Assembly (NCBI GenBank): GCA_046050355.1 | Contig: JBJOPW010000001.1 | Location: forward strand, 79,475 to 143,474 | DNA length: 64,000 nucleotides | Reading direction: 5' to 3' | From: Candidatus Parcubacteria bacterium | GTDB taxonomy: Bacteria; Patescibacteriota; Minisyncoccia; Phycocordibacterales; UBA918 | Shown: positions 1 through 54,622 of the stretch, piece by piece | Layout: each line of letters starts with the position of its first letter | How positions within the stretch are numbered: position 1 is the stretch's first letter | Notes under the pieces: generated by a model | Databases searched by the model: none | Told to the model about the DNA's origin: nothing | Seen by the model: the letters and a program-made list of their open reading frames with translations, nothing else | Made by a program: the position numbers and the translations under genes

Positions 1-3000
1 TTAAAATCATACAGACCAGCCGGTAGGTTTGCGTTGGCTACCCGTAACGTCATGCGTAGTCGCACCAGGTCACCATCTCCGAGTGGTTCGTCGGCAATTG
101 TAATGGGGTTGTTTTCACCCAAATCTGAGACACCAACCGGCCATGGGTCGGTGGGCTTCAGGGCATTATTATTAACATAGAACCGATAGTAATTTTGACG
201 AACAGCGAGTCCAGAAACTGGCCATTCCACAATTTCGGTACGATACGTCATTTCCCCTGAGGCTTCACTGCGCCACAGTTCATAGGTGGACGTGCTCGTA
301 ATACGAGCACCGGCCATTGGTAAGGGAAAGGTCGTATTAGCCCCCACGACGCGGGTATTAGCAAATATTGATGCATTGTTTGTCGCTTCAATTGGTGAGA
401 AGATTGAGATTGATAACGCTACTGGCTCAGTACCGGCGTTGGTCGTTCCATTTGTTCGTTGTACCTCCATAGCACCGGCACTGGTCTGCAGGTTTTCAAT
501 AATCCAAGCCACTGAAGTATGTCCGCTCGGTGCAGTAGCAGCGCCCTCAAGTCGGTATGATACGGCGCCAATACTCGACAGCCAAACTTCGTGGCCAAAG
601 TTGTTGACGTTGCCTTGAGCGGTCATGCGTTTTTGTGTGTGTATAAACGAACGCGCTAAACTATTGAGCGTTGTTGGTATTGATTCTGTTTCTACGGTTC
701 CAACTGCAGTATACGTATGTTCACTTCGTTGCACCTGCCAATTAATGCCGGTAAATTCAACCACGGCATAGCTCACATTGATAATAGCCCCACCGGCTCC
801 ACGATTAAAAACGGGTGCCGTACTGGTGGGACTCCAACTTGATGTTACTTGCCCGGCATAATACACGTTACGCGCAACATCACGGTTCTCAATACCAGTT
901 ATAAAGACCACCACATCAGTATTATCGGTAATGGTACCAAGGGCAGTGCCGGTGGCTATCAAGGCGGCACTCGCCATATTGACACTCCCCACCCCTCTTA
1001 CCTTCATTTCATTGTCGGTGCCAGCATCCCCAATAAACTCAACGATTTCCCAGTTCACCCGTGTATTTCCGGTGGCAGCTGGTGGCCGAGAAATGGTAAA
1101 ATTGCTCGGTAAGTTAGCCGCCGAAATGTACGCGGTGATATCATCGGCATTTTGCGCTCCTCCACCAGCTGTCGTGCGTCCCGGCCCAGTGTTGTGGGTG
1201 TCAGTGAGACGGACAAAGGCAGTCGTTGTGCTCGCTGGAGCAGTATAGTCAACACCAGCGGTTAGCGTTTGTGACGTACCGGCGATGGTAGCAGTGCCAC
1301 GCTGCACTTTAAAATCACGCTTGGGAGCAGTGGTTAGTTCTGCATAGTTACTATAGGTTAAGGGTTCTCCATTATTGGTGAGTCTAAAGCAATACGTAGT
1401 ATTATAAGCAGTAATATTGGTAGAGGTAATACTAAATTCATACTCAGCAAATTCAGTTGTACTCATGACCAGAGCAGAGGTAGTACTCGTGGTATCACGT
1501 TGGCCGGCATTTGCGACAATAAAGGTTGGATTTGGGTCGGTAACACCCCCGTTTGCAACCGCAATATTGGTAGTGTTGTTACCGTTGGTGAGATTAGTGC
1601 TATCAAACATATTCCAGTCATCAGCACTATCGCCAACCGGTGTCCACACACTCACCGCACTACAGGTAGTCACGCGCGGTCCAAATTCAAGGCGATAGGC
1701 GGTTGCAACAGAAGCAGCCGCACCTTCGTTTGAAAGTGCCAGGCGTAGTCGGATTGGTGTATTGGCAGGGTGTTCTGTCAGGAGGACATTTTCTGACCCA
1801 CCTGTAGCTGAAGTTGCTGTAGTTTCAGACCCATTGTCGTTACGCCAATGGTAACCATTTTGGGTAATCACTGGTCCTGAAAGCGTGGTGGTACCGTTAA
1901 TTGCTATCGGTGTAGATGGTGATACCGATCCAGCCGAGACACCGATATCATTAGCGGGTGAAGAAATTTCTATTTGCACGGTGTCACCATTGCTAGCCGC
2001 AGCGGTAACATCAAACACCACATAAAGACAAACGGTCTGTGTGGTTGTTACGGTCACCGAGCCACTAAACGTTGATGTACCATTTTGACTAGTAAAGCCA
2101 TCAGTATCGGTGCTACCAAATTGCGTTTCTGATCCACCATACGATTCACTGGCACAATCGTACGGAGCGGTGGTGTCTAAATCATATCTAAGCACTATGG
2201 TATCTAAGTGATTCTGTGCATCAACAGTGCCATTCTCAGCTATCATAATATTGGTAATATTTCGACTACTGGTGTTTTCACGAAAGACAAACTGGCCGCC
2301 GACATGTTGATTTGTAGATGGCACCAAGAGCGATGCTGTCTGACTACCTAAAGCGGTCACACTGACATCAGCGGCAATGGTGACACTTGGGAATTGTGAA
2401 TATACGGGTAAGGGGGTGCCAGCATTAGTAACACGAAAACAGTACGTTGTTCCCTCACTCGCTGAGGTTGATGCAACAATGGCATATTCTAATTCAACAA
2501 AATTAGTGTTCGTTAGCGTTAAAGAGCCAGTTTGTGAAGAGACTTCGCGCAAGCCACCATTGGGGGTTAAAAATGTCGTGTTTTCGTCGGCCACACCACC
2601 AGTACCCACTGCAATATTAGTAGTATCTCCCCCTTCGGTAATATTTGCAGATAACGACATATTCCAGGCATCATCGGCTGCCCCGACATCAGTCCAACTC
2701 GTGGTGTCATTACAGGTCGGGGCTGCTACCCCATACTCCAAACGAAATGTTGATGCGGCGCTAGATAGTGAGCCTTCGTTTGATACCTGCACGCGCAGGC
2801 GACGAGGGTTATTCGGCAACAGTGCAGCGATTGGTGTATCAGCTACTCCGCCGGTCGCAGATGAGGCGGTAGTTTCTGTACCGTTATCGTTACGCCAGTG
2901 GTAGTGCGTTTGGGTAAGTTCATCATTTTGAATCAGTGATGATGAAGCCATACGCACTGGAGATTCAGGCATTACCAGCACACCACCAGTGACAATCACG

Positions 3001-4718
3001 TCATCATTAGGAGCTTCAACTGAAACTGACAACGTATCACCATCAAGGGCAGCTTCTAGTACATCGAGCACGACGTAGAAGCACATGGCCTGTGTCGTGG
3101 TGATAGACTGTAAGCCAGAAAAACTCGAAACCCCATTAGCGCCAGAAAATCCATTAGTGTCTGTAAGTCCATACTGAGATTCAGTGCCACTATATGATTC
3201 ACTGACACAGTCATAGGGGGCCGAAGTATCAAGGTCATAAAACAATTTCACATTGCTCACCGCAGTACTACCATTAATACTGCCACGCTCGTTAACGACT
3301 ACAGCGGTCACATTCCGACTACTTTGGGTTTCTCGAATTGCAAACTTGCCGCCGACATAGACATTATTGGTACCGGCGGTGATAACACTGGTCGCTGTAC
3401 CGGTTGCATACAATTTTGTAATCGGTGCGATATCAGCAAGCGTATCACCAAAATAATCATCTGGTGCTGGGTCAGTCCAACTCACATAGATGCGCTCATC
3501 ACTCATGAGATTGATATCAAGACCACGATGGTCGCCAGCAGTCACACCCGAGACGGTTCGCTCAGGACTCCAGGTTGACATAGCAGAAGTTGAAGTCGCC
3601 CAGTAGATACCTCCGGTCGTGGCTGTCGCCGGTGTCGACCGTAGTACATAGGCAACATAAACAGTACTGGTATTGATATCTAATCCAATCGCAACCGTAT
3701 TAAGACCACGTGTTGTATTCGTAAATACTGCAGTTGTTCCAGTCCATGAACCGGATGAGAACTTAGCCGTACGAACATCATGATCAAGTGTAGTATACGT
3801 GTCATGATCAGCACCATAGGCAAGATACACATCACCGGAGTTTGGGTCAACAACAGCCGCCATACTGGTATCGTACGTAGCACTCTCAACGGCTGCCCCA
3901 TCAATAGTAGTCCAACTGGCTGACCAAGCTGATCCATTCCATACACGTGACTGAATCACGTTTAAACTAATGTCACGGTTTATAAGGAGTACATTGCCAT
4001 TAATAAGTGGCAACAATATATTCCAATCATTATCAAGATCCATAAAACGCGCACCACCCGGCTCACTCCAGCCAGTAGTGGCGGTGCACCCCGTGTCAGT
4101 ATCGCAACTCACCACAAAAGAATCAGCGGCATCTGAGATACCGATAAAAACTTCGTTACCAGCATTTTTTGTGACCGTGAGGTTGTTAGTACCCGATACG
4201 TAGGTGCCGGCCTGACTTGAGTTGGTACTCGCGTTCACTGGAGCAGTACCGAGGAGGAGAGTGTCGGTACTGGTATCAAGCGCATTATAAAATACATGGT
4301 CGGGGTTTGAGGCCGTTTCCATTGTTGCTATATGAATCGTGCTCCCAAAGTCGCCGGGTGTCCACTGGTCATACCACACCGCAATACTCGAACAGTCAGT
4401 TTGGGCATCTACAATCACTGGTGTATTCCAGACCGTACCACCGTTTGTAGTCTTACTATACACACAACTACCAGAGAGATCTCGGTAAAACTTGTACCCC
4501 ACCTGATCAGAAGTGAACACCGTTTGGGAGCCACCGAAGAAAAATGAGTTGGCATCGGTACTCACCGTAGCATCAATGGTATTTTGGGCAGCTTCGGCCA
4601 TAGTCGGCCAGGCCATATACTCCAAAAACGTGAAGTTGAGAAAAAACATCACAGCTAACATGATGCCAGCAATCAGTCGACGCCATCCATACCAAAAAAA
4701 CGCTGGAAACCTCCGCAT
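1..4718 (-). CDS. Giant secreted repeat protein, partial (>1,570 aa; 3' end lies outside the window)
   Basis: Not in the ORF track because it has no stop in the window. ATG at 4718 gives MRRFPAFFWYGWRRLIAGIMLAVMFFLNFTFLEYMAWPTMAEAAQNTIDAT (signal peptide-like). The same frame at the window edge reads ...ENNPITIADEPLGDGDLVRLRMTLRVANANLPAGLYDF, resembling a module in the 7,456-aa protein. It has an Asp-box-like YSKTTNGGTVW and a ~350-aa tandem unit (YDLDTxAPYDCxSESY and WRNDNG...YCFR). The frame was spot-checked, not read codon by codon. Confidence 0.88.
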   Translation of the reverse strand, partial: MRRFPAFFWYGWRRLIAGIMLAVMFFLNFTFLEYMAWPTMAEAAQNTIDATVSTDANSFFFGGSQTVFTSDQVGYKFYRDLSGSCVYSKTTNGGTVWNTPVIVDAQTDCSSIAVWYDQWTPGDFGSTIHIATMETASNPDHVFYNALDTSTDTLLLGTAPVNASTNSSQAGTYVSGTNNLTVTKNAGNEVFIGISDAADSFVVSCDTDTGCTATTGWSEPGGARFMDLDNDWNILLPLINGNVLLINRDISLNVIQSRVWNGSAWSASWTTIDGAAVESATYDTSMAAVVDPNSGDVYLAYGADHDTYTTLDHDVRTAKFSSGSWTGTTAVFTNTTRGLNTVAIGLDINTSTVYVAYVLRSTPATATTGGIYWATSTSAMSTWSPERTVSGVTAGDHRGLDINLMSDERIYVSWTDPAPDDYFGDTLADIAPITKLYATGTATSVITAGTNNVYVGGKFAIRETQSSRNVTAVVVNERGSINGSTAVSNVKLFYDLDTSAPYDCVSESYSGTESQYGLTDTNGFSGANGVSSFSGLQSITTTQAMCFYVVLDVLEAALDGDTLSVSVEAPNDDVIVTGGVLVMPESPVRMASSSLIQNDELTQTHYHWRNDNGTETTASSATGGVADTPIAALLPNNPRRLRVQVSNEGSLSSAASTFRLEYGVAAPTCNDTTSWTDVGAADDAWNMSLSANITEGGDTTNIAVGTGGVADENTTFLTPNGGLREVSSQTGSLTLTNTNFVELEYAIVASTSASEGTTYCFRVTNAGTPLPVYSQFPSVTIAADVSVTALGSQTASLLVPSTNQHVGGQFVFRENTSSRNITNIMIAENGTVDAQNHLDTIVLRYDLDTTAPYDCASESYGGSETQFGSTDTDGFTSQNGTSTFSGSVTVTTTQTVCLYVVFDVTAAASNGDTVQIEISSPANDIGVSAGSVSPSTPIAINGTTTLSGPVITQNGYHWRNDNGSETTATSATGGSENVLLTEHPANTPIRLRLALSNEGAAASVATAYRLEFGPRVTTCSAVSVWTPVGDSADDWNMFDSTNLTNGNNTTNIAVANGGVTDPNPTFIVANAGQRDTTSTTSALVMSTTEFAEYEFSITSTNITAYNTTYCFRLTNNGEPLTYSNYAELTTAPKRDFKVQRGTATIAGTSQTLTAGVDYTAPASTTTAFVRLTDTHNTGPGRTTAGGGAQNADDITAYISAANLPSNFTISRPPAATGNTRVNWEIVEFIGDAGTDNEMKVRGVGSVNMASAALIATGTALGTITDNTDVVVFITGIENRDVARNVYYAGQVTSSWSPTSTAPVFNRGAGGAIINVSYAVVEFTGINWQVQRSEHTYTAVGTVETESIPTTLNSLARSFIHTQKRMTAQGNVNNFGHEVWLSSIGAVSYRLEGAATAPSGHTSVAWIIENLQTSAGAMEVQRTNGTTNAGTEPVALSISIFSPIEATNNASIFANTRVVGANTTFPLPMAGARITSTSTYELWRSEASGEMTYRTEIVEWPVSGLAVRQNYYRFYVNNNALKPTDPWPVGVSDLGENNPITIADEPLGDGDLVRLRMTLRVANANLPAGLYDF

Positions 4719-4772: not shown

Positions 4773-6299
4773 CTACTCGACCACAGGTATGTCTATAGGG
4801 GAAGCATCAGGTGTAAATGGAGTTACTACGAGGTCTGGAATGGCCGCCACAGGTTCTGATACAACTTCAGTTACCACGGTTGTTTCAGTGAGGTCAAGGG
4901 TGAGGCTCGTAGTGGTTGCAATCACCTCGGTACTAGTCGCGAGGTTGAGCTCTAAATCTGGTGGTGTACTCGAGGCATTACCGTCAGGATTTGCTGCTGC
5001 TTCAAGGCCATCTTCTTCGGTTGGTGACTTAGTTGATAGCAACGCTCGAGTCTCGCCAGTAGTATCTGGACTCGGAATCTCATCTGGCAGTGGCGCCGGT
5101 TCAGCTTCAAAAGAGGTAATTTCACCGGTGACAAGATCGTATCCGCGAGTTTCGATGTCACCATTCTCCATCGCCGCATCGTAGACAAGGACCATACGTG
5201 GATTTGAAATAGTGCCACCGTTATCATCACGAATGGTCATGAAGGCTTTTGAGTTCAGGTCATATACCTCGATAGTTTTTTCGTTGTACTGGACTCGGTG
5301 CCATACCACCAAATTATTCCGTATTACCGGTGCGAGATTATGCTCACTTGTGTTCGTCAGCTGCGTAGCTGTCTCGCCGTCATATAGCATAATCTGCCAA
5401 GCATCATTATCCCAGTATTGCCAAACAATGATATTGTCGGCACGGAACGGCTCCATGTTGTTGGTGCTCGTATCGGTGAGCTGACGCTCTTCACCTGAAG
5501 CCATATCATAGACAACAATTTGATAGCGCTCATCAACTAGACGGTGCCAAACGAGACTGTCGGAAGCTGGGTCATAGTATGGGGAGGCATCGTCAACCGT
5601 GTTGTAGGTAATCTGTTGGAGGCCGTCATTATTCTTGAGATAAATTTCAAGGTCACCATCACTATCGGGGAGCGAGAACAGGCCTTGTTCGTCAGCAGCT
5701 GGAACTGTCGTTGTCGCGAGTTGGCAGTAGAAAGAACCGTCCTCAACCGCGAGACAGTTGTCTTTACTGAACTGAATCATTTGGTCACTCTCCACGGTCA
5801 ACGTTGGCGTGGTTGGATCAGTGCTGGTAGCGGTTGTCGTGCCAGTTTGTTCGGTCGATGTCGCAACAGGCAGGTTAGTTGTATCGGTAGGTGGTTCTAC
5901 TTCCCCGCTTGCAGGAACATCAAGAACACCGGCATCAGGCGGTACTGGTGTAGGATCTTCCTCTGTTGCTATTGGTGTATCAGGTGGTGGAGATACATCA
6001 GGCGATGGCTCGTCGGCCGGTGCTGTTGCTTCACCAGACACTACTTCTGCTGGCGATTCGGCTCGGGTAGAAAACTCTTGCTGGATAGTCGCCACCGCTT
6101 CATCGGTTATCGTAACAGGTAGATTTGGCGCCGGTTCAGGCGGCGACTCGTTTGCATACGCTCGCTCGACAGTTTGGAGTAAGAATGAACAAACCAGCAC
6201 CACCACAAAGAGCCGTACTAGTGCACGTTCAAAGACAAATCGATACAACAGGGGTGTACCTGGTGGCGACGATGATCTATTGGCTGGTAATTGTTTCAT
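4773..6299 (-). CDS. Secreted protein with TolB-like beta-propeller repeats between acidic Pro/Thr-rich linkers
   Basis: N-terminal hydrophobic segment ending AYA. Repeats of the form QIVVYD..GEERQLTD...NMEP / QIMLYDG..ATQLTN...NLAP. Low-complexity P/T/E flanks. Confidence 0.75.
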   Translation of the reverse strand: MKQLPANRSSSPPGTPLLYRFVFERALVRLFVVVLVCSFLLQTVERAYANESPPEPAPNLPVTITDEAVATIQQEFSTRAESPAEVVSGEATAPADEPSPDVSPPPDTPIATEEDPTPVPPDAGVLDVPASGEVEPPTDTTNLPVATSTEQTGTTTATSTDPTTPTLTVESDQMIQFSKDNCLAVEDGSFYCQLATTTVPAADEQGLFSLPDSDGDLEIYLKNNDGLQQITYNTVDDASPYYDPASDSLVWHRLVDERYQIVVYDMASGEERQLTDTSTNNMEPFRADNIIVWQYWDNDAWQIMLYDGETATQLTNTSEHNLAPVIRNNLVVWHRVQYNEKTIEVYDLNSKAFMTIRDDNGGTISNPRMVLVYDAAMENGDIETRGYDLVTGEITSFEAEPAPLPDEIPSPDTTGETRALLSTKSPTEEDGLEAAANPDGNASSTPPDLELNLATSTEVIATTTSLTLDLTETTVVTEVVSEPVAAIPDLVVTPFTPDASPIDIPVVE

Positions 6300-6420: not shown

Positions 6421-7176
6421 TCAAGACTTCGATCGAAAATAATTAGCGAGAAGGATTGAAAAGTCTTTGAAGGTCATAGCCCCATCATTATTAAAATCGT
6501 AGCGGTTGTTCTGCTTTACCCATTCCGCCATAAATATACTGATATCGTCAAGTGAGACTTTTCCATCAGCATTCACATCGCTGACAAGGAGAACCACTGC
6601 TCCGGCTTCAAGTGTCCCATCCGTACTTTCGGCAATTTTAAGTCTTAACTGACTCTCTTCCCCGATTTTTGCGTTAATTTCGGTCCCCTTGCCATCACCT
6701 GCCAGTAGGTTGGCTTCGGTGGTTGAAAACACAATTTCCCCAGTAGCACGAGCTTTGGCTCTTATGGTGGCGATAAGGTGTTTACCTACAAACCCTTTGC
6801 GGTATGTCCCACCTTCGAGTAAAACCGCTCCATTTTCAACTCGCGGCTCACTTGTCCAAAGCGTAATTACTGACTCACCGCGGTCAATACCAAGTACTTC
6901 AATTTTGTCTTCAGGATACGCAATGCTCAGTGAGACAGCATTGACCGGTGTGTTTGCAACTGCATAGACAGCGATAAAGAATGTCTCATCTGGAGCACTT
7001 TGTGATTGTTTGGTTTCAAGTATAATTGATGATTTTGAAGAACCAACTACTGAAGCGAAACTTGCTACGACCATGAGAGCGAACAACCACGAAAACAGGT
7101 AGCGTACCGTTGTGGTTGATGTGCGGCTTCGCCGAGCGTGTATATAGGCTACAACTAGCTGCCATAGTTTGATCAT
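6421..7176 (-). CDS. Cohesin-like domain plus C-terminal dockerin-like paired EF-hand
   Basis: Cohesin-like core VNAVSLSIAYPEDKIEV...SVITLWTSEP...LLAGDGKGT. C-terminal DVNADGKVSLDDISIF / DFNNDGAMTFKDFSIL. ATGA overlap with the upstream gene. Confidence 0.78.
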   Translation of the reverse strand: MIKLWQLVVAYIHARRSRTSTTTVRYLFSWLFALMVVASFASVVGSSKSSIILETKQSQSAPDETFFIAVYAVANTPVNAVSLSIAYPEDKIEVLGIDRGESVITLWTSEPRVENGAVLLEGGTYRKGFVGKHLIATIRAKARATGEIVFSTTEANLLAGDGKGTEINAKIGEESQLRLKIAESTDGTLEAGAVVLLVSDVNADGKVSLDDISIFMAEWVKQNNRYDFNNDGAMTFKDFSILLANYFRSKS

Positions 7177-7850
7177 AGTGATTGCAGTTCGCGTCTGGTT
7201 GTTTCAATTTGCTGCATGCGCACCGTCATATTGTTCTTGAGATCAGTGACGGACTTGAGCGTATTCATAATCTCTTCAGAGTCACGACTCTTCCCTGCCA
7301 AAAGGGCTAAAATAATATCACCCTGCAACTCAACGAGTTGCGTGAAGTCCGCTGCCATAGTAAGTTCATCTTCAGCGATTCGTTGCCAAAGCGCTACACG
7401 ATTTGTCTTCTCGTCTTCAGTTTCAAGAATGCGTGAGCGGAGCGTAATGTATTCATCATACACAGTCACTTCTCGTGCTAGTCGAGCTGCCATCACTGAC
7501 TTTTTGTCGGCAAAATACCGACCACAGGCAAAAAACAGTCGGTCAAGCTCACTCAGTTCTGGCTTCGAAATTGAGGCAGATAATTTGTCGAGTAGCACCT
7601 CAAAACGTTGACGTTCTGTTGGCTGACAGTCGACCACAATACGTTCGGTAATTTCATCAGCTTCATTGCGTTTGGTGAGGTCAGCTATCGTAGCCAAAAC
7701 CAGTTCTTGTTCAGCTATATTTGCTTTAAGCGCTAGACTAGTTGAATCAAGTTTTTCACGAACAACTCTATTTGTGTAGATAGAAATTACCCACAAAAGG
7801 AGCCCGATACCAATAGCGAGTAGAGCTAGCTGGCGAGATGTTACATGCAT
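7173..7850 (-). CDS. Membrane-anchored helical/coiled-coil hypothetical protein
   Basis: N-terminal TM segment, helical heptad-like body, two Cys; tightly packed in the operon. Confidence 0.7.
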   Translation of the reverse strand: MHVTSRQLALLAIGIGLLLWVISIYTNRVVREKLDSTSLALKANIAEQELVLATIADLTKRNEADEITERIVVDCQPTERQRFEVLLDKLSASISKPELSELDRLFFACGRYFADKKSVMAARLAREVTVYDEYITLRSRILETEDEKTNRVALWQRIAEDELTMAADFTQLVELQGDIILALLAGKSRDSEEIMNTLKSVTDLKNNMTVRMQQIETTRRELQSL

Positions 7851-7860: not shown

Positions 7861-9576
7861 TTAGCGAGTTAAGGTGGTTACGTCTGATACTTCTTTTTGT
7901 ACAATTTGCTCTGCTGATTTTAACACGGTTCTTATATCTGTAATAAGGGCACCTTCGGTCGCTGTCAATTTACCGGTTTTGCGGCTACGAACAATATCCG
8001 CTTCGTGTGCATGCAGCAGTTCTTCAATAACAATAAATTGGGCATGAAGCGCAGTACCAACTTCACTACTTTCACGGTTAAGGAGTACCCGGAAGCGGCG
8101 ATACCGTGCCAAGAAGTAAAAACTGCCGAGGGTAGCCAGTACGAGCAGGGCAATCAGTGGAATAATGACCGAGAGCACATCAATCAAGAATGAACCGATT
8201 CGTACGAGACCCATAGGTTGTACAACAAATTGGACGGGGTCAGAAATACCACTTTGCGCACCAAACTCATCATGTGCAGCAGCCGTGAGGGCATAGACGC
8301 CTTCAGTGAGAGCGCTGTTCGGGATAAAACGAAACGTACCTGTTTCGTCACTCTTTACCTCGTAGATAGCTGGCTCTTGTCCAGTCTTCGTGAGGGTTAC
8401 GGCGACTGTAGCATTTGGTCTTGTGGTACCAAGGAATACTGGGATGACACCGGTACTGATCTCGGTTGGCACATCGCTAAAGCGTGGTGCTTCAAATGAT
8501 TCAATCTCGAACGTAAAGGTTGAGACCGTGCTGTTGCCGGCGGCATCAACCACTTCTACCACCATTGTTTGGCGACCGGGAGTCAATTTCTCGAGTTTTA
8601 TTTCATTTTTACCTTCTTCATTTTTGTACTCAACTGGTGCAGCGCCATTGAGTTGTACCCTAAAGACTTTAATTGGTGAGCCATTGGTATCAGTAGTTGA
8701 TGCTACGACAATTTGTGTCGGATTCGCCAGATTGCTATCGGGTTTGAGGCTCAACACCACATTTTGGGGAGCGTTAGTATCAACCCCGAGACGATAGTGC
8801 GCTACCTTGCCCCACCCCTCGGCATTTTTGAATTGGATATGGAAATACGATACCCCTTCATCGAGATCAGCAAGGGTAATCTCTTTGATAGGACTATCAT
8901 AGACTTTGGTTGGTATGGCAGTCGGAGATTCATCAAGTGCGGTTCGTACAGCGACTACATCTCCCGGTAGTGTCCAGCGGAGAATAGCGGTCTTGTCTTT
9001 TGACCAGCCGGCTGGGTCGCCATGGGTATCGGAGGTTATCTTTGGAGCCGCTGGTGTATTGGCTGGTGGTACGTATTCAACAATGGTTTCGGGGGCTGGG
9101 GTCTCAGTGGCAGCAGAGATGGTATACGCACCACTCCCCATACTCGAGAGCACATTGGTCCCGCGACCATCAGCCGCTAGAACAGAGCCACTACCAAAGG
9201 TGACACGCGCTGCTCCAGATCCCAGGGTGCGGAAGGTGATGTTCATCACTGTTCCTGACCCACCAGTGTAGCCGGTCGGCGTACCACCGCTAAAGTTAAT
9301 CGTACCAGCACTATTAGAGTAGGTTGGTTCGGTGGTCCAGAGATTAAAGATTGAACTACTGCGGGAAACCGACACTACCTGAAGCGCTTTATTATCAAAA
9401 TTAATCGTGCCATCAGCGGCATTAATGGCAGCTCCTTTAGTATCAACCGCCACGCGCACAGTAAAGGTACTGCCGCTGCCATAGACACCAGTAGCTGGTG
9501 ACATATTGAGAGTGGCCGCTAGAGCGAATGAACTAGAACCAAAGAGCGCAAGTAGTATAAGGAGACGACTAAACAT
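7861..9576 (-). CDS. Membrane-anchored cohesin-like + Ig-like protein with cytoplasmic helical tail
   Basis: Likely start is the ATG at 9576 (MFSRLLIL...ALA signal), 1 nt after the previous stop. Cohesin-like motif INAADGTINFD...SIFNLWTTEPTYSNSAGTINFSGG...VLAADGRGT, Ig-like segments (GTTRPNATV...GTFRF), TM, ~80-aa tail. Confidence 0.82.
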   Translation of the reverse strand: MFSRLLILLALFGSSSFALAATLNMSPATGVYGSGSTFTVRVAVDTKGAAINAADGTINFDNKALQVVSVSRSSSIFNLWTTEPTYSNSAGTINFSGGTPTGYTGGSGTVMNITFRTLGSGAARVTFGSGSVLAADGRGTNVLSSMGSGAYTISAATETPAPETIVEYVPPANTPAAPKITSDTHGDPAGWSKDKTAILRWTLPGDVVAVRTALDESPTAIPTKVYDSPIKEITLADLDEGVSYFHIQFKNAEGWGKVAHYRLGVDTNAPQNVVLSLKPDSNLANPTQIVVASTTDTNGSPIKVFRVQLNGAAPVEYKNEEGKNEIKLEKLTPGRQTMVVEVVDAAGNSTVSTFTFEIESFEAPRFSDVPTEISTGVIPVFLGTTRPNATVAVTLTKTGQEPAIYEVKSDETGTFRFIPNSALTEGVYALTAAAHDEFGAQSGISDPVQFVVQPMGLVRIGSFLIDVLSVIIPLIALLVLATLGSFYFLARYRRFRVLLNRESSEVGTALHAQFIVIEELLHAHEADIVRSRKTGKLTATEGALITDIRTVLKSAEQIVQKEVSDVTTLTR

Positions 9577-9577
9577 A

Positions 9578-10606: not shown

Positions 10607-10653
10607 ACTTGTAGTATACAGAATAGAATCATACAAAAACGGCTTTTTACACA

Positions 10654-10688
10654 AACAAAAACTCCCCGTGGTGGGGGAAGTTTTTGTT
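10654..10688 (-). terminator. Intrinsic terminator after the WxL-like subunit gene
   Basis: AACAAAAACTCCCC...GGGGAAGTTTTTGTT hairpin with T/A tails; close match to the terminator after the paralog (53439-53475). Confidence 0.7.
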
Positions 10689-10717
10689 GTATTACTCCAA
10701 GCTTGGACCAATATTCT

Positions 10718-12831: not shown

Positions 12832-12955
12832 AGAGTTCGCCAAATGACCCTAGATTCGAGGCGTGCGAGGAAATTGTTGTGAGCCGTACTGGCTGTACGG
12901 TGAACTGCAATTTACCGAAGCACAACAAAGAAGATAGGGTTAGTTGGTGGACTCT
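12832..12955 (+). repeat. Structured ~125-nt dispersed repeat, copy A
   Basis: Outer stem with G-U pairs; core CGAGGCG...GAGCCGTAC-loop-GTACGGTGA...CAACAAAG; ends on the stop codon of 12954-14060. Confidence 0.8.
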
Positions 12956-18823: not shown

Positions 18824-18829
18824 AGTACT

Positions 18830-46163: not shown

Positions 46164-46625
46164 CTATTTTGGCCTGGTCTTATCGGCAGTGATTTTGAGC
46201 TTGACTCGCTCTTTCTCCTCCGGCTTTAAGAGTGGCAGTATTAAAATGAGTACACCGTTTTTTATCTTTGCCTCGGCCTTTTCAATATCAACACTCTCAG
46301 GCAAGATTATCCGTCGATAAAAATCACCCCAGACACATTCTTCAGTAAAATACGAACCACGCGGTTTACTTTTAGGAAAGACAATAAATTCCGGTCGAAT
46401 GCGGCGACCTTCGATGAGGACGATATCGGCATCCCCTTCAATCGAGACGTGGACATCATTCATATCAGCACCAGCTGACTGCGCATAGATGACAATCGTC
46501 CGTTCCGTCTGATAGACATCAACATCAAGCTGCGCCACTTTGTCGACAGCAGTCTCTTCCTCACTAGACTGCAGAGTCTGGTCAGAACGAACACCTCTCC
46601 CTTTGAGACGTTGTAAAAATGACAT
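46164..46625 (-). CDS. Hsp20/alpha-crystallin small heat-shock protein
   Basis: LDVDVYQT, EECVWGDFYRRIILPESVD, AKIKNGVLILILP; TATAAT and GAGGA upstream. Confidence 0.92.
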   Translation of the reverse strand: MSFLQRLKGRGVRSDQTLQSSEEETAVDKVAQLDVDVYQTERTIVIYAQSAGADMNDVHVSIEGDADIVLIEGRRIRPEFIVFPKSKPRGSYFTEECVWGDFYRRIILPESVDIEKAEAKIKNGVLILILPLLKPEEKERVKLKITADKTRPK

Positions 46626-46920: not shown

Positions 46921-47040
46921 GGCTCTAGAATAAAATCGTTTATGACAAGGCGTCTGAACGCCAAAGAACGAGCCGTATTGCTATACGGTGAGGATTTCGA
47001 GTGAAACACAACACAGTCAGAGGCGATTTTAGTCAGAGCC
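46921..47040 (+). repeat. Structured ~125-nt dispersed repeat, copy C (a decayed copy D lies at ~46810-46910)
   Basis: CAAGGCG...GAGCCGTAT-loop-ATACGGTGA...CAACACAG, closed by GGCTCT...TAAAATCG / CGATTTTA...AGAGCC; ends on the stop codon at 47040. Confidence 0.78.
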
Positions 47041-48953
47041 TAGCCGGTCCAGTTGAAGAGGAGAATCGAGAAGTCCGTCAAATTCACCTTACCGTCCTGA
47101 CTAATATCCGCGGGCGGATTGGAGTCGCCACCATCAGTACTCCACCAGAAAAGGAGAATAGAAAAGTCGGTGAGGTTCACCTTACCATCACGATTGAGAT
47201 CAGAATTATTACCCGCTGCTTGTGATGGCCCACCGACTCCATAGAGGGTGTACTGTGAGAAGTTTGATGTCAGTGTACCATCAACTGCTCTCGCACGTAC
47301 TTTGTAGGTGCCATTACTAAATCCACTGGTATCCACTGGTGTTGACCACGCCCCACTACTATTAGCGGTAACGGTGTATGACTTGCGTGACGCGGTGTTT
47401 TTGTCCTTTTCATTCTCAATGGTAACCTGAGCATTCGGGAAAGTATAGCCAGAAATCGTCAATGCTTGTCCGGGATTAACTGGATTCGGTGAAACCAGAA
47501 TCGAAGGCGGAATATTGATATTACTGAGAGCAGATTCACGAGCTCCGGCCACGGTAAAGGAAGTACTGAAGGTTGAAGACTTCGTCCCCGCTTGATCGGT
47601 GGCATAGATGCCAAAGGTGTATGCACCCCGAGCGATTTTGTCCACGGTGGCAGTATACGAACCATCATTGGTAGCGTTGGCAGTTACCGCTGCTTTGCCG
47701 TCAACGAGCACCGTTATCTTTGCTCGTGGCGAAGCATAACCAGTGATCACCACTTGTCCATCACCACTACGGTACGGACCCGGAGCTGATTCGAATCCCC
47801 CGCCCCCGCCCCCGCCACTAGCGCCGCCACTACCACCCCCACCGCCACCGCCACTGCCGCCACCAGAACTACCTGAAGTACTACCACCACCGGTAGCCGG
47901 TCCACCACTATTACCACTACCGGAACCACTTCCAGTGCCCCCATTACCGGTACCAGTACCTGAGCCGCTACCATTACCATTTTCGGTTGAGCTACCGGTC
48001 GGCTGGTTGCTCACGAAGAAGCTAATAAGGTAGTCGTCGGGGTTAGTGTTACCTTCATCATCACGGCACCGCACGTAAAAATCTTGTTGAGAATTGGGTG
48101 TCACCGCCACCACCTGAGAATGGAAGAGGAGGCCTGAGTTAGAGAAGACAGCGGACATAGTGTTGTAATCAGCGCCTGGACTGCGCGCAAAACGACAAAA
48201 CGCAAACTCATCAGTTTCGAGACTAATCTCTACATTTAAGGTCGTGCCACCAACGGTCGAGGTAGGCTGACCATTAAACCGAAATGGGGGAATGGCTTCC
48301 GTCGTATCGACGGGGGCGACACCGACTTGATCAACAAGGGCAATCAAAAAACCAGCATTGCCAATCTCGCTAGCGGTATTATCAAAAATACGCATAGCTA
48401 CTTCATGAGTACCAACCGTTGATCCATTAGTAATGCCAGGAATATCTGCCGGGGTGGTAGTAGTGCCGGTTGTGGTACTAAAACTCGTACCGCCGGTTTG
48501 TGCGAGTGTCGTATGATTACCGATTTTTAACTCGAGCAAACTACCCGCTGCAATTCCTGTGGTTTGGTTGAGACGATACCGGATGAGCCCCGGCGTACCC
48601 GGGACAATATCAACCTTATCATCACTTGCCGATACGACTGAACCAACCTCACGTCGCACACCGTTGACTCGTAACTCGACATTACGGAGCTCGGAAAACT
48701 GGGCACTGCCCGCGACTGTAAAGTCTGTTGGTGGTGTAATCTCTAGATAGCCCTCAGGTGGTATACCCGTATCAACCAAACGAAAAGACAAGGTATGATT
48801 TGCAGCCCTTGTCGGCGCTGACTGCGAAATAGTGTCTTTGTACTCCTTCACATTACGAGCAAACGAAAATTGTGGCGATACAAACAAAAAACCAATGAAG
48901 CCAAGCCACAAAGTCAAAGCAATGACCAGACGCAACGGTCTCGTGATATGCAT
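47040..48953 (-). CDS. Secreted protein: subunit-like N-domain, Gly/Ser linker, two Ig-like domains, C-terminal dockerin
   Basis: Likely start is the ATG at 48953 (TACAAT 6 nt upstream). N-domain DTISQSAP...NHTLSF...LKIG resembles the N-domain of the WxL-like subunits. DLNRDGKVNLTDFSIL / DISQDGKVNLTDFSIL. Confidence 0.83.
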   Translation of the reverse strand: MHITRPLRLVIALTLWLGFIGFLFVSPQFSFARNVKEYKDTISQSAPTRAANHTLSFRLVDTGIPPEGYLEITPPTDFTVAGSAQFSELRNVELRVNGVRREVGSVVSASDDKVDIVPGTPGLIRYRLNQTTGIAAGSLLELKIGNHTTLAQTGGTSFSTTTGTTTTPADIPGITNGSTVGTHEVAMRIFDNTASEIGNAGFLIALVDQVGVAPVDTTEAIPPFRFNGQPTSTVGGTTLNVEISLETDEFAFCRFARSPGADYNTMSAVFSNSGLLFHSQVVAVTPNSQQDFYVRCRDDEGNTNPDDYLISFFVSNQPTGSSTENGNGSGSGTGTGNGGTGSGSGSGNSGGPATGGGSTSGSSGGGSGGGGGGGSGGASGGGGGGGFESAPGPYRSGDGQVVITGYASPRAKITVLVDGKAAVTANATNDGSYTATVDKIARGAYTFGIYATDQAGTKSSTFSTSFTVAGARESALSNINIPPSILVSPNPVNPGQALTISGYTFPNAQVTIENEKDKNTASRKSYTVTANSSGAWSTPVDTSGFSNGTYKVRARAVDGTLTSNFSQYTLYGVGGPSQAAGNNSDLNRDGKVNLTDFSILLFWWSTDGGDSNPPADISQDGKVNLTDFSILLFNWTG

Positions 48954-49019
48954 AGGTATATTGTACCTTGTGAGGATGAACAAAATGGGTGTTCTCCCAC
49001 AGTTAAACAATGTTTGAAA

Positions 49020-51865: not shown

Positions 51866-52297
51866 CTATACAGACGGTATTGGTGTGGTGGTAGCGATTT
51901 GTAGTCGTCGCTCGCGGGCCCGGACATAGTCAAGGGCATAATTAAGCACAATGAGCACGAGGAGGATAAAAAGGATGGTGGTCAGTATAAAGGTTCCCGA
52001 ATCCATTCCGGGTAACGGACTATTGTTGTTTAGGCCAACTTCTATCTCCCGCTCCGCTACGGCAAGTTCACGGGCATCGAGCTCACGGTCACGGGCAGTG
52101 AGAGCGGCTGTCATTTGGTTGAGCTCCGTTGGCGCCACCCCCACTGAGACACCAACCGCATTGGCTAGATACAGTTCGGTATTATCGGCCAAACGAGCAG
52201 TCAATGGACTAAGGAGACCACCTTCAAAGACGAGCATAAGTGCTACCACCGCACTGGCAATACGCAATAGACTGTGGTACGTGGAATTGTATCCCAT
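51866..52297 (-). CDS. Small membrane protein with two TM segments around a short coiled coil
   Basis: Likely start is the ATG at 52297 (TATACT 6 nt upstream); VGVAPTELNQ...RDRELDARE; ILFILLVLIVLNYALD. Confidence 0.75.
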   Translation of the reverse strand: MGYNSTYHSLLRIASAVVALMLVFEGGLLSPLTARLADNTELYLANAVGVSVGVAPTELNQMTAALTARDRELDARELAVAEREIEVGLNNNSPLPGMDSGTFILTTILFILLVLIVLNYALDYVRARERRLQIATTTPIPSV

Positions 52298-52313
52298 ACA
52301 CGTAGTATACACC

Positions 52314-53372
52314 TTAGGCAAACAGGATGAGAAGTCCAATAAAGAACAGTGCACTCACCGATAACATCACAAAGAAGATGAGGAGGAACGGATTACCGGT
52401 ATTGCGGCGACTCACAATCTTGCGACTACTGCCAGCCGTATAGTAGGCGAGCTTACGACGAATGTAGAGCTTCACACCGATATAGACACTGAGGAGCAGT
52501 ACCGTGAGGATACCAAGTGCAGGTAAAACAATTTTAACTGGCAGAATCCAAAAAGTAACGGTACTTGACATCGTCTGCTTCGCACCTTCTTCACCATAAA
52601 TCGGACTAATCACCGCCTCGTACCGACCAAAACCATAACCTTCACCCTTCCAGTCAAAAGTAAATTCACGAGTGTCGCTCGGAAACACAGCTGCAGCTGC
52701 TTCGTTGAAAATGAGGTTCTTGTCTACTTTCTGTCCGAACATATTGGTAATTTCTACTGGCCCAACTGGTCGCACCAGTGTATTGCCATCATTTTCAATT
52801 CGCACATTAAAGGTGACATTTGGTGAACCGTAGATATAGTTGTCGGTAGAGAACTGTCGAATCTTGGCTGACTCAACACACTCACCGGCTACACGAAGAC
52901 TCACAATATTGGCTACCTCATAGCCAATGGCCGCACCACTTTCACGCATCTCCGGTGGCTCCATCGAGACGAAGATACCAGCAAAGTGGTTACATGGTGG
53001 AGCGTCTGGCGGGACCGACACGACAAAAGAGACTGGAACTTCCCCACCAGCAGGCACGGTCACGCTATTAGTAGCCAAGGTGATCCAACTACTCATATCA
53101 AGTGGTGTTGGTTCTACGTTTTCATTTGCATAGATCGGTACACTACCATCACGCACACCGATGATATCACGGCGACCGAGGTAGTAGGTCTGTTCGATCT
53201 GACTTTCATTTTTGATTGACGTTGTAAACGTCTTGGTGGTACCAGGATCAATTTTCTCTTCGATCGTCGCTGGTTTGAGAGTGACACCAGCACTACTTTG
53301 TGCCCACGCACCCGTTGGCACCACCATAAGAGCGAAGAGAATTAATAAAATTGATGTTGGAATCAAGCGCAT
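52314..53372 (-). CDS. DUF916/DUF3324-like (WxL-interacting-type) membrane-anchored protein
   Basis: IDPGTTKT..IKN, SWITL...VTVPAGGEVPVSFVVSVPPDAPP..HFAGI, RIENDGNTLVRP.G, VFPSDTREF, GRYEA, FWILP then TM; a second C-terminal TM. Directly downstream of the WxL-like gene. Confidence 0.75.
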   Translation of the reverse strand: MRLIPTSILLILFALMVVPTGAWAQSSAGVTLKPATIEEKIDPGTTKTFTTSIKNESQIEQTYYLGRRDIIGVRDGSVPIYANENVEPTPLDMSSWITLATNSVTVPAGGEVPVSFVVSVPPDAPPCNHFAGIFVSMEPPEMRESGAAIGYEVANIVSLRVAGECVESAKIRQFSTDNYIYGSPNVTFNVRIENDGNTLVRPVGPVEITNMFGQKVDKNLIFNEAAAAVFPSDTREFTFDWKGEGYGFGRYEAVISPIYGEEGAKQTMSSTVTFWILPVKIVLPALGILTVLLLSVYIGVKLYIRRKLAYYTAGSSRKIVSRRNTGNPFLLIFFVMLSVSALFFIGLLILFA

Positions 53373-53491: not shown

Positions 53492-54622
53492 TTAGAAAGT
53501 AGGAGTCGCAATGTAGGTAAGGATGGTGTTGTAGTCATCACCCGCTTCCTGGAGTGGCGTGATCTGGATAGCATACGCTACGTCAGATTGACCAATCTGG
53601 GCAGTTGTTCCGTCAGATGGACCGTTGTGACCGAATATCTGACGAGGTGTGGTACTGGCAGACACGTATCGTGTACCACCAGTATTAAACTCATTAGAGT
53701 TAATATCATCTGCTGACGTTAGACCCCAGTGACCCCATGTGTTTTCCTGTGCAATGTTTGGTGTTGGAGCTGCCCAAAGTGCAGGTGCGTTTGTGTAGGC
53801 ACCATCGATGAAGCCATCGATATCAGCACCCGTTGATGAGAGAAGGTTTTGATCCTGCTCTACCGTCACTACGAAGCCGTTACGGGCGTTTGTTGTAACA
53901 TTGAGGCGCTGACCAAGAACTTTTGGTACTCCAGCAGTCAAGACACCGAATGGAATGGCGGTGGCTGTACTTGAACCCGTAGTGGTCGTACCGTTGATCG
54001 TTGTACTGGTCGCAAGACCTGTCACCACAAAGGTGAATGAGGTATTGACGATCGCTGTAACATCGACGTTGTCTAGAATAGCTACTCGTGTGCGACCGGT
54101 ATCAACGGTCCCCGCTGTCACAAGAAATTCATATGAACCCGCAGTTGGGTTCGTGACACGGTCTGTACCAGTTGTACCGAAAGTAGCATTTGTTCCAATC
54201 TCGATAACGACCGCTTGTCCAGCTGTTACGACACCAGTAGCTGAGGTGAGTGTAAGCACCTGACTCGAGGTGGACACACCCCAGGTGGCACCAGCGGCAG
54301 CGGCTGCCAGGGCTTGGTCAGTTCCGTTGATTGAGAAGTCGACATCAGTGAAGTCGATGGTTCCCAAGTTGAATCCTGCCGGGAATGTGACGGTAATCGT
54401 CCCACCAGCCGAAACTCCAGAGGATGACGTAGCCATCGTGAATCGGATGGTGTGGTTCGAGAGAGCCGACACGTCTGAGTCTGATAAGGTGTTGCTAACC
54501 TGGAAGAGGTTGGCGGCACCAGCCGTGTTGTAGTAACCCACAGACACCGCTAGCACAGCTGCAGCAACGAGCATCGCGACTACTCGGTGCAAAGCTTCAA
54601 CACTCGTTGAAATTTTTTGCAT
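53492..54622 (-). CDS. WxL-like/pilin-like secreted surface subunit (paralog 2)
   Basis: Signal peptide ending AGA; NTLSDS...SNHTIRF; IPFGVLT; VTTNARNGF; LLSSTGADIDGFIDGAYTN identical to paralog 1; ends YNTILTYIATPTF. Confidence 0.72.
   Translation of the reverse strand: MQKISTSVEALHRVVAMLVAAAVLAVSVGYYNTAGAANLFQVSNTLSDSDVSALSNHTIRFTMATSSSGVSAGGTITVTFPAGFNLGTIDFTDVDFSINGTDQALAAAAAGATWGVSTSSQVLTLTSATGVVTAGQAVVIEIGTNATFGTTGTDRVTNPTAGSYEFLVTAGTVDTGRTRVAILDNVDVTAIVNTSFTFVVTGLATSTTINGTTTTGSSTATAIPFGVLTAGVPKVLGQRLNVTTNARNGFVVTVEQDQNLLSSTGADIDGFIDGAYTNAPALWAAPTPNIAQENTWGHWGLTSADDINSNEFNTGGTRYVSASTTPRQIFGHNGPSDGTTAQIGQSDVAYAIQITPLQEAGDDYNTILTYIATPTF

Follow-up and report, generated by a model that had tools for sequence, protein, structure and literature searches.

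The stretch of DNA examined here, called the window throughout, comprises 64,000 nucleotides of a Candidatus Parcubacteria bacterium (contig JBJOPW010000001.1, positions 79,475 to 143,474) and constitutes the final 64 kb of a contig of 143 kb, denoted C1. It carries an island of genes encoding pilin-like subunits, membrane-anchored chaperones, giant secreted proteins, and proteins with cohesin or dockerin domains, which is the subject of this report. The source genome (940 kb in 17 contigs, 99.97% complete) has its nearest records, by name, in the Paceibacteria, Kaiserbacteria or Nomurabacteria, which bears out the claim of an earlier note, made from the letters of the sequence, that the organism probably belongs to the candidate phyla radiation (CPR). 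All genes of the locus lie on the minus strand between positions 3 and 54622, the long open reading frames (ORFs) being confined to this strand from 3 to 60152. The locus extends past the start of the window to C1:75423, about 4 kb outside, where two further chaperone-like genes are found before the housekeeping genes begin; the island, at ~60 kb, amounts to about 6% of the 940-kb genome. The inventory drawn up in the earlier note, namely four cohesin-like proteins, three dockerin proteins, two pilin-like subunits, two DUF916-like proteins, two giants, a MacB pair, an Fn3 protein, and an Hsp20, was recovered in full and co-oriented using Pfam, NCBIfam, and phmmer. The ORF totals for the whole genome are 5 dockerin, 7 cohesin, and 6 chaperone-like.

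Two pilus types described in preprints of 2026 provide the frame of comparison. Troman et al. (bioRxiv 2026, PMC13278184) reported CPR-specific pili, termed Pam, in Candidatus Mycosynbacter amalyticus (CPR, Saccharimonadia), in which two-domain pilins are joined by donor-strand exchange; in the available text of that preprint, PamA/B/E are the pilins, PamC/D are PapD-like, membrane-anchored chaperones, PamT, consisting of a C-terminal domain only, forms the tip, and PamR is the membrane-anchored terminator. The WxL/Elr pilus of Enterococcus faecalis and other Bacillota was described by Sleutel et al. (10.64898/2026.10.17.759780) and, in the portion of the preprint available, is composed of the pilin ElrD, the DUF916/DUF3324 chaperone ElrE, the tip ElrA, and the LPxTG base ElrB. 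The WxL/DUF916 clusters of Enterococcus are shown there to build a pilus, the chemistry being that of Pam, with DUF916 being a membrane chaperone, large WxL tip adhesins carrying the subunit domain C-terminally, and the system as a whole being confined to Bacillota.

The genes that carry the argument are as follows, A and B denoting two fibre systems proposed below:

53492..54622, minus strand: pilin376, predicted Pam-type major pilin of system A
10718..11926, minus strand: pilin402, predicted second Pam-type pilin, paralogue of pilin376
52314..53372, minus strand: chap352, membrane-anchored two-domain chaperone resembling DUF916 and WxL-interacting proteins (WxLIP), PapD-like fold, system A
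14066..15112, minus strand: chap348, divergent DUF916-like membrane-anchored chaperone, system B
C1:77038-78024, outside the window: chap328, chaperone-like, system A
C1:75423-77132 (= L005:15924-17633), outside the window: chap569, chaperone-like, system A
22134..44504, minus strand: giant7456, secreted protein of 7456 residues, proposed tip adhesin of system B
3..4718, minus strand: giant2, the N-terminal 1572 of 2053 residues (complete gene at C1:78031-84192), proposed tip adhesin of system A
15106..16983, minus strand: p625, proposed shaft subunit of system B
47040..49010, minus strand: doc656, proposed base (terminator) subunit of system A
12954..14060, minus strand: doc368, proposed base (terminator) subunit of system B
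6421..7176, minus strand: cohdoc251, small protein with a cohesin-like domain and a C-terminal dockerin
44594..46138, minus strand: coh514, proposed membrane anchor of system A
9578..10711, minus strand: coh377, short cohesin-like protein with a C-terminal transmembrane (TM) anchor and a basic tail
7861..9609, minus strand: coh582, long TM-anchored cohesin protein containing Big_13 domains and a cytoplasmic tail

Subunits, chaperones, and giant proteins

The two proteins pilin376 and pilin402 are paralogues of each other (phmmer E 1e-100). A profile of the pilin376 family (A1, 45 sequences) was found by hhalign to align over its full length (Prob 99.2, E 1e-19) with a pilin on another contig of the same genome, C3, that is positive for NF058581 (NCBIfam CPR_Pam_pilin_C, cut-off 55 bits); two paralogues on C3 pass this model at 81.8 and 66.9 bits. 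Because of this full-length alignment, the window proteins are assigned, at the level of profiles, to divergent Pam-type pilins. The pilin character of the subunits designated WxL-like in the earlier note is thereby upheld, whereas their membership of the WxL family is not: the WxL Pfam family PF13731 matched none of the locus proteins (E<=0.01) and nothing genome-wide (E<=0.1), and A1 found no PDB sequence at E<=1, WxL chains included. The pilin376 family counts 1673 relatives, the best 120 of which share 64-100% identity with the query, the first being the query's own protein. The AlphaFold2 (AF2) model of pilin376 displays two all-beta domains with a predicted local distance difference test (pLDDT) value of 81, the N-terminal sandwich being confident and the C-terminal domain less so. 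VIA-align likened the N-domain of this model to YcnI, YweA, and Gram-positive pilins at Z 9-11, a Z of about 8 being the most that the C-domain reached, while Foldseek retrieved generic adhesins with two immunoglobulin (Ig) domains and CfaB at a TM of 0.2; no Pam or WxL pilin structure surfaced in either search.

The proteins described as DUF916-like and membrane-anchored in the earlier note proved to be relatives of WxLIP, both by profile and by fold. The chap352 family profile identified EfmWxLIP1, a WxL-interacting protein of E. faecium, in the PDB at E 9e-8, and the AF2 model of chap352 (pLDDT 84), which consists of two beta domains followed by long C-terminal helices, found as its top Foldseek matches the WxLIP entries 9i25_C and 9i1y (E 5e-14), WxLIP structures having been solved as 9i1y and 9i25, with CfaA, CsuC, Caf1M, PapD, and SafB behind them. 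Hydrophobic segments or helices at the C-terminus are present in all the chaperones, chap352 and chap348 among them. PF06030 (DUF916, cut-off 27.3 bits) was scored below its cut-off by chap352 (19.6 bits) and chap569 (23.1 bits) and is carried by some chaperone orthologues in precomputed annotation; the criterion for a WxL/Elr chaperone is PF06030 in combination with PF11797. The three chaperones assigned to system A are mutually close, with chap352 matching chap569 at E 1e-38 and chap328 at E 2e-16 by phmmer, whereas chap348 is only 22% identical to chap352 (alignment A2), the chaperone hidden Markov model (HMM) matching it at E 4e-58. An additional membrane segment and a C-terminal LytR_C domain were observed in chap569.

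The suggestion that the giant proteins are adhesins is supported by their C-terminal ends, which match the pilin in giant2 and p625 in giant7456, so that both look like fibre-attached adhesins. The last 170 residues of giant2, encoded outside the window, were aligned by hhalign with A1 (Prob 95.5, E 1.4e-8) as a Pam-type C-terminal domain, and score 20.3 bits against NF058581 over model positions 3-148, below the cut-off of 55. In giant7456, the domains Laminin_G_3, DUF2341, and Ig_Rha78A_N were recognised, and its C-terminal domain, of ~250-290 residues, is shared with p625 at 27% identity (E 1.6e-12) and has no hhalign link to the pilin profile A1. The p625 protein opens with a signal peptide and an 'ATTTLTV'-type strand at its N-terminus, and a middle region connects these to this Cys-rich C-terminal domain; its gene lies just upstream of the chap348 gene and overlaps it by 7 bases. 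The family of the p625-type domain comprises 505 representative clusters, in which the domain ends the full-length matches, these being proteins of up to 2188 residues.

Two observations made beyond the locus concern these C-terminal modules. The closest ESM Atlas clusters to the p625 C-terminal domain (15109-16086), at 0.94-0.97, are unnamed and partly labelled archaeal (Methanobacteriota, Aenigmatarchaeota), and the module may therefore also occur in DPANN-type archaea. Furthermore, the NF058581 domain terminates ORFs of 2122 to 6452 residues in other CPR genomes (G060, G176, G087, G080, and others), for which reason giant tip adhesins on Pam-type fibres seem widespread in the CPR.

Dockerin and cohesin proteins

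A Dockerin_1 domain (PF00404, cut-off 22.9 bits) was detected in doc656 at 32.5 bits, and cohdoc251 scored 26.8 bits with NF041540. A profile of the three dockerin segments of the locus retrieved cellulosomal dockerins from the PDB at E 7e-7 to 1e-3, and both Ca-binding repeats are visible in the dockerin alignment (A6). Such a resemblance raises the question of a cellulosome-like enzyme complex degrading host or environmental polysaccharide, in favour of which the cohesin and dockerin domains themselves can be cited, along with the GH18- and GH5-like genes identified downstream by Pfam (56435-57637 and 62259-63575). None of the 5 dockerin ORFs of the genome carries a catalytic domain or a carbohydrate-binding module (CBM), however, which extends to the entire genome the earlier statement that no dockerin is fused to an enzyme; the nearby glycoside hydrolases are devoid of dockerins, and no CBM-bearing scaffoldin was seen. 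The cellulosome is rejected, its probability being negligible. In common with the cellulosomal pairs of Clostridia and Ruminococcus, the locus has a PF00963 cohesin and a type-I-like dockerin with two Ca-binding repeats, and cohdoc251, carrying both modules, is reminiscent of an adaptor scaffoldin. Unlike in cellulosomes, enzymes and CBMs are absent, the cohesins sit on their own membrane helix rather than on SLH domains or sortase linkage, and the dockerins are borne by pilin-like or Ig-domain proteins within a pilus operon. Non-cellulosomal cohesins and dockerins are not without precedent, Peer et al. having reportedly documented them across the domains of life in 2009.

The organisation of doc656 resembles that of a fibre subunit. 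It begins with a pilin-like N-domain and linker strand; an Ig-like domain comes next, and a Gly-rich spacer separates it from two Ig domains and the dockerin. In an hhalign alignment, residues 1-320 cover the N-domain and linker of A1 (Prob 91.7, E 7.7e-7), and the N-terminal part was also matched by phmmer to the pilin402 orthologues of other genomes (E 1e-8). Given that the N-domain and linker are present and that an Ig-like domain of another kind follows the linker, doc656 can, judging from its domain order, donate a strand while possessing no pilin acceptor domain. A complex of pilin376 (residues 37-376) and doc656 (residues 45-340), modelled with an own alignment for each partner, scored 0.82 (runs 0.82, 0.76, and 0.83), the best of three controls scoring 0.00; 116 of 157 solved complexes score at least as high as 0.82, as do 2 of 215 mismatched pairs, a yardstick that is rough here since own alignments were used. 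The runs agreed in at least 73% of contacts, with partner pLDDT of at least 85. The modelled contacts on doc656 fall on residues 219-238, the linker (226-238) being placed between residues 220-230 and the C-terminal strand 358-376 of pilin376, and the interface in the model is of donor-strand geometry, with the linker occupying the C-terminal groove of the pilin.

No pilin domain is present in doc368, in which a signal peptide is followed by an 'ATTTIDLSI' strand and a Cys-rich repeat and, beyond a Gly spacer, by a pair of Ig domains and the dockerin (DUF4215 and Big_7 being recorded by Pfam). The strand motif that opens mature p625 is nonetheless also found at the N-terminus of mature doc368. 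A motif of the form [AS]T[TS][TS][LIV]x[LVI] was sought in the first 100 residues of all ORFs of 80 related loci, described below, and occurred in 54 of 78 p625-like and 55 of 74 doc368-type proteins, as against 8 of 2293 unclassified ORFs and a single instance each among 66 pilins and among 38 large proteins that have a p625-type C-terminal domain, with no instance among 162 cohesins or 73 chap348-type chaperones; having been drawn from a motif chosen after the sequences were viewed, and from loci that are kin, the contrast is illustrative and overstates independence. The earlier note had cast the dockerin proteins as adaptors captured by cohesins. They are better read as the last, or base, subunits of a fibre, in view of the pilin N-domain and complex model of doc656 and the motif of doc368, and a terminator function is considered rather likely for them. 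For cohdoc251, the part of an adaptor is possible.

As regards the receiving partner, PF00963 (cohesin, cut-off 24.1 bits) was matched by coh514 at 41.7 bits and by coh582 at 35.7 bits, with the latter also matching Big_13 at 51 bits. Paralogy within the locus connects the cohesins at E 1e-17 to 1e-9 by phmmer: coh377 is related to coh582 at E 1e-17 (and to coh318 of contig C3 at E 5e-20), and the cohesin region of cohdoc251 to coh514 at E 3e-13. Behind its signal peptide, coh514 carries the cohesin and Fn3- or Big-like domains, after which a TM helix leads into a charged tail in the cytoplasm. Three of the four cohesin proteins have a hydrophobic segment close to the C-terminus, with TM-like segments at residues 413-431 of coh514, 328-346 of coh377, and 465-502 of coh582. 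No LPxT[GAS] tail was present in any locus protein, and genome-wide only two weak candidates were encountered; a single sortase gene was noted in the genome (G000:C6:27457-27858). A PamR-type terminator, with tandem FnIII domains, its own C-terminal membrane helix, and an N-terminal strand, was likewise not recognised in the locus by Pfam or by eye. Since neither an LPxTG-like tail nor a PamR-like terminator was recognised, and since cohesin genes lie next door, the membrane cohesins beside the dockerin genes would be the obvious anchors, and their service as membrane sockets for the dockerin terminators is slightly favoured.

Conservation across genomes

A search of species-representative genomes seeded with the dockerin protein yielded at least 498 confirmed relatives among at least 598 matched stretches, of which the best 80 loci were analysed with local HMMs and phmmer. 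Contig ends truncate many of these loci and so depress the counts, while 35 of the loci have full 10-kb flanks; as kin, they demonstrate conserved linkage and not independent origins. Their record names include Paceibacteria, Paceibacterota, Kaiserbacteria, Nomurabacteria, Parcubacteria, Azambacteria, Falkowbacteria, and 'uncultured Candidatus Saccharibacteria'. The families recovered were:

Chaperone: 78 of 80 loci; 35 of 35 with full flanks
Cohesin: 59 of 80 loci; 35 of 35 with full flanks
p625-type domain: 68 of 80 loci
Giant-type C-terminal domain: 61 of 80 loci
Any large protein with such a C-terminal domain: 35 of 35 with full flanks
Pilin: 65 of 80 loci; 33 of 35 with full flanks
MacB permease: 64 of 80 loci; 33 of 35 with full flanks
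Fn3 protein: 53 of 80 loci; 32 of 35 with full flanks
cc225: 46 of 80 loci; 30 of 35 with full flanks
Propeller protein: 42 of 80 loci; 28 of 35 with full flanks

The proposal that these families are conserved together was thus substantiated, a chaperone, a cohesin, and a large subunit accompanying the dockerin gene in every one of the 35 full-flank loci. The conserved order is that of the window: giant, Fn3 protein, ABC ATPase, permease, p625, chap348, doc368, pilin402, coh377, coh582, cc225, cohdoc251, and propeller protein. Contig C3 repeats the series subunit, chaperone, dockerin, cohesin, cohesin, as do the loci of an Azambacteria (L085) and a Falkowbacteria (L086) record; the Falkowbacteria locus shows a minimal form, restricted to a subunit, a chaperone, a dockerin, and two cohesins, and the Azambacteria locus a comparable arrangement that lacks the pilin. 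A second module, running pilin376, chap352, p162, doc656, Hsp20, and coh514, is contiguous in two loci (L077 and L084). Within the genus, coh514 was matched in 20 of the 24 genomes sampled and had a full-length orthologue of 61-88% identity as its best match in 13 of the 24, the spacing of its neighbourhood being the same as in the window wherever the contigs are long.

On a wider scale, NF058581 was detected in 40 of 151 phylum-wide genomes (E<=1e-6), 12 of them over the cut-off and the source genome and an unpublished genome, G190, included. From the 38 other genomes, G190 being left out, one Pam locus each was inspected. A chaperone-like gene of the type with a C-terminal membrane helix accompanied 27 of these 38 loci, and a cohesin or dockerin, as sought with local HMMs, only 3, two of which (L093 and L109) have both domains and one (L123) a cohesin only; the fibre, in general, does not need them. 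The top-scoring loci, L087 and L088, contain a pilin and chaperones and neither cohesin nor dockerin. A Pfam scan of 77 of the 153 candidate secreted ORFs (L087-L102) disclosed no cohesin or dockerin, the remaining 76 having been covered by local HMMs only. With cohesins or dockerins in 3 of 38 loci, the cohesin-dockerin clasp is a lineage-restricted variant of the Pam kind and not a general feature of it.

It might be argued from the same scarcity that the island merely houses two unconnected surface systems, a pilus and a set of cohesins that display dockerin-tagged Ig proteins as a scaffold or coat, and one cohesin-dockerin protein does stand alone on contig C14. Chaperone, dockerin, and then cohesin genes follow one another in one operon in all 35 full-flank loci, however, and the dockerin proteins themselves bear the marks of fibre subunits, in the pilin N-domain and linker of doc656, modelled in the pilin groove, and in the N-terminal strand motif common to doc368 and p625. 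Such a separation is considered quite unlikely.

A different division, by which only system A is a pilus and the p625 family and giant7456 are independent secreted adhesins or coat proteins whose C-terminal module is folded or held by chap348, draws on the missing profile or fold link between the p625 domain and the Pam or WxL pilins. It has to contend with the overlap of p625 with a DUF916-like gene, with the fact that in 74 of 80 loci the dockerin gene has a chap348-type chaperone gene as its neighbour, and with the occurrence of the p625-type domain in 68 of 80. In addition, the domain ends proteins of many sizes, as do the subunit domains of WxL tip adhesins in the available text of Sleutel et al. 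(10.64898/2026.10.17.759780), and the donor-like N-terminal motif is common to p625 and doc368 and missing from the giants (37 of 38). This division is deemed unlikely, if not to be dismissed lightly.

The remaining genes of the operon, several of which take part in the conserved order, are as follows:

4773..6299, minus strand: bprop508, the propeller protein, secreted or anchored, with TolB-like beta-propeller repeats (NCBIfam), operon-conserved
7173..7850, minus strand: cc225, N-terminal hydrophobic segment, the rest mostly polar or charged, operon-conserved
17615-18844, minus strand: MacB/FtsX-type permease (Pfam, NCBIfam)
18961-20283, minus strand: MacB-type ATP-binding cassette (ABC) ATPase with a C-terminal extension of ~200 residues (Pfam, NCBIfam)
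20640..22115, minus strand: Fn3 protein, secreted, four Fn3-like domains (Pfam)
46164..46625, minus strand: Hsp20 (PF00011, 41 bits), no signal peptide
49020-50777, minus strand: MsbA-like ABC exporter (Pfam), within module 2
50810-51802, minus strand: MgtE/CBS Mg transporter (Pfam), within module 2
51866..52354, minus strand: p162, small, two hydrophobic segments and a coiled region

The p162 gene was found in 5 loci, each with a doc656 orthologue, and is conserved in module 2. Since that module is contiguous in L077 and L084 without the MgtE transporter and the MsbA-like exporter, both of which are absent there between p162 and the doc656 orthologue, these two genes are probably passengers; a gene for a CorB Mg2+ transporter is mentioned near pam operons in the available part of the Pam preprint (PMC13278184), and a divalent-cation transporter beside such pili may be recurrent. 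Of the 7 loci that contain a doc656 orthologue, 5 keep the cytoplasmic-looking Hsp20, conserved between doc656 and coh514, and 2 break off immediately behind the doc656 orthologue. No C-terminal hydrophobic segment was seen in the Fn3 protein. As for the MacB-type pair, no ATPase figures in the assembly model of either pilus preprint, to the extent of the text available (PMC13278184; 10.64898/2026.10.17.759780).

Some features of the window stand apart from the proteins. Two unusually long intergenic gaps within the operon (11927-12953 and 16984-17614) hold copies of small dispersed repeats, of 70-170 bp and 75-86% identity, with more copies on at least 8 other contigs and one repeat arranged in tandem in the second gap. 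On the plus strand, a TupA-like ATP-grasp gene at 61222-62273 looks split, its second ORF covering profile positions 67-240 only and being preceded by an unannotated ORF of 165 residues in a different frame. An Rfam scan of the window matched no RNA family, and the window contains no tRNA.

Proposed assembly and its significance

The evidence from family assignments, domain orders, and conserved gene order, all read directly from sequence or fold, makes it highly probable that the pilins and chaperones form a fibre. The locus as a whole is probably an expanded island for a pilus of the Pam/WxL kind and its adhesins, anchored by cohesin-dockerin pairs and containing two interleaved systems. As envisaged, these would be surface fibres of a single-membrane bacterium, assembled by chaperone-guided donor-strand exchange without an usher. 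In system A, pilin376 and pilin402 would be exported by Sec and held by the membrane-anchored chap352, chap328, and chap569, and polymerisation would proceed as the open C-terminal domain of each subunit receives the linker strand of its neighbour. Ending in an acceptor domain, the 2053-residue giant2 would cap the tip as an adhesin, and doc656, in which a dockerin takes the place of the acceptor domain, would join last and stop growth. In system B, the shaft would be made of p625 with chap348 as its chaperone, giant7456, sharing the C-terminal domain of p625, would occupy the tip, and doc368, combining the p625-type N-terminal strand motif with a dockerin, would be the terminator. Anchoring would be achieved by the dockerins plugging into the membrane cohesins, coh514 on the one hand and coh377 and coh582 on the other, with cohdoc251 perhaps acting as an adaptor. 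The fibre base would in this way be tied non-covalently to the membrane, an arrangement standing in for the directly anchored PamR found in Mycosynbacter or for ElrB, which is sortase-linked in Enterococcus. The binding of cohesin to dockerin, like the roles at tip and base, is inferred. A split into two separate fibre systems is suggested because the chaperones (chap352, chap328, and chap569 versus chap348) and the C-terminal domains of the subunits divide alike; it is put forward tentatively, the balance tipping marginally the other way.

The relationship to Pam pili is apparent in the pilins, whose N-terminal sandwich and open C-terminal domain are joined by a linker strand, in the full-length profile match of the window pilin family to an NF058581 member, in the PapD-like chaperones with a C-terminal membrane helix, in the lack of an usher, in the CPR host, and in the proximity of a gene for a divalent-cation transporter, MgtE in the window and CorB in Pam. 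Unlike Pam, the window pilins are under the NF058581 cut-off, the proposed tip is a giant of many domains with a pilin C-terminal domain at its end where PamT is single-domain, dockerin-bearing terminators and membrane cohesins would take the place of PamR, no counterpart of which was recognised, and a second subunit class, p625 with its N-terminal strand, and a MacB-type ABC pair are encoded inside the operon. The WxL/Elr system provides the closest sequence and fold match for the membrane-anchored chaperone, and the locus shares with it the design of tip adhesins as variable payloads on an invariant C-terminal module; the proposed N-terminal donor strand of system B also parallels Elr in that the shaft and the base would both donate and the tip only accept. 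It differs from WxL/Elr in the want of a PF13731 match, in sub-cut-off PF06030, in the absence of an LPxTG tail, and in its CPR host. The chaperone fold and the donor-strand logic of the modelled interface are further shared with chaperone-usher pili (Pap/Fim, CFA/I, Csu, and Caf1), from which the locus departs in having no usher or outer membrane (PF00577 being unmatched genome-wide at E<=0.01), membrane-anchored chaperones, and pilins with an extra N-terminal domain.

Several results weigh against the proposed island of anchored pili. The window pilins miss the NF058581 cut-off, pilin402 attaining 23.9 bits and pilin376 giving no match (E<=0.01), and fold searches with the pilin model led only to generic Ig-type adhesins or pilins. 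For the p625-type C-terminal domain, neither hhalign against A1 nor a PDB profile search brought up any similarity to Pam pilins, PDB chains, or WxL proteins, and the nearest named ESM Atlas cluster, WxL at 0.76, is below the counting level and a lead only. Two of the three dockerins fall just under the Pfam cut-off (doc368 at 22.4 and cohdoc251 at 22.8 bits), two of the four cohesin-like domains (coh377 and cohdoc251) have no cohesin match in Pfam and are recognised by paralogy only, and the cohesin profile matches PDB cohesins only at E 0.025. The score of the pilin376-doc656 complex is a model confidence from own alignments and not a measurement. To these may be added the rarity of the clasp in other Pam loci and the selection of the strand motif, both related above. 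System B, being drawn from gene context and one motif, is the weaker part.

In the earlier note, the same genes were interpreted as an undescribed scaffold whose cohesins, fixed to the membrane, would bind free dockerin adaptors, the WxL-like subunits and the giant being nucleated by the DUF916-like proteins. The inventory of families stood up to profiles, fold, and synteny: the named families are all there and conserved together, and the DUF916-like proteins are WxLIP relatives. A wholly new system with free adaptors did not, for the core of subunit and chaperone already corresponds to the Pam pilus as given in the available text of Troman et al. (PMC13278184) and is related to the WxL/Elr pilus in that of Sleutel et al. 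(10.64898/2026.10.17.759780), no WxL Pfam match was obtained, and the dockerin proteins look like fibre subunits. The scaffold in its original form is regarded as decidedly improbable.

What is new lies in the elaboration of that core, namely the scale of ~60 kb with two giants, two proposed sets of subunit, chaperone, and terminator, and a conserved MacB-type pair, as well as the pilin-derived N-terminus of doc656 with its modelled strand insertion and the motif common to p625 and doc368. The words 'cohesin', 'dockerin', 'WxL', and 'DUF916' are absent from the available text of the Pam preprint (PMC13278184), as are 'Patescibacteria', 'candidate phyla', 'Pam', 'cohesin', and 'dockerin' from that of the Elr preprint (10.64898/2026.10.17.759780), and no paper linking cohesin or dockerin to the CPR or to donor-strand pili was found in a limited full-text collection. 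An essential dockerin-domain protein, SEML1_0315, was reported by Wang et al. (2023) in the saccharibacterium Southlakia and was considered as a parallel; it was dropped, as its tabulated neighbours, in the part of the source available, are a hydrolase, a protease, and a tRNA rather than pilus genes (PMC10633639).

A more speculative reading, advanced as a possibility that the evidence does not yet favour, takes the cohesin-dockerin pair as a base coupling with one dedicated terminator for each fibre type. Each terminator would copy the donor strand of its own shaft subunit and insert its dockerin into a membrane-spanning cohesin with a cytoplasmic tail, creating a detachable, Ca2+-dependent socket that might, with the MacB-type pair, transmit force or signals between the giant host-binding fibres and the interior of an episymbiont cell. 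By the same reading, and because the chaperone is related to WxLIP, the Pam pili of the CPR and the WxL pili of Bacillota could belong to one ancient pilus superfamily.

Members of the CPR, which account for much of bacterial diversity, live attached to other microbes. The locus, whose order is conserved across many species of the Paceibacteria group, offers a testable parts list for attachment, comprising a shaft, a chaperone, a giant tip adhesin, a terminator, and an anchor, whose interfaces are natural handles for pull-downs and for fibre labelling in enrichment cultures. Homology of the chaperones connects the Pam and WxL/Elr systems, which appeared in separate publications of 2026 and were both presented there as lineage-restricted. 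If the proposal is true, a cohesin-dockerin clasp on a strand-exchange fibre would widen the biology of this pair beyond cellulosomes, and would represent a third mode of anchoring for such pili, besides the terminator membrane helix of Pam and the sortase of Elr.

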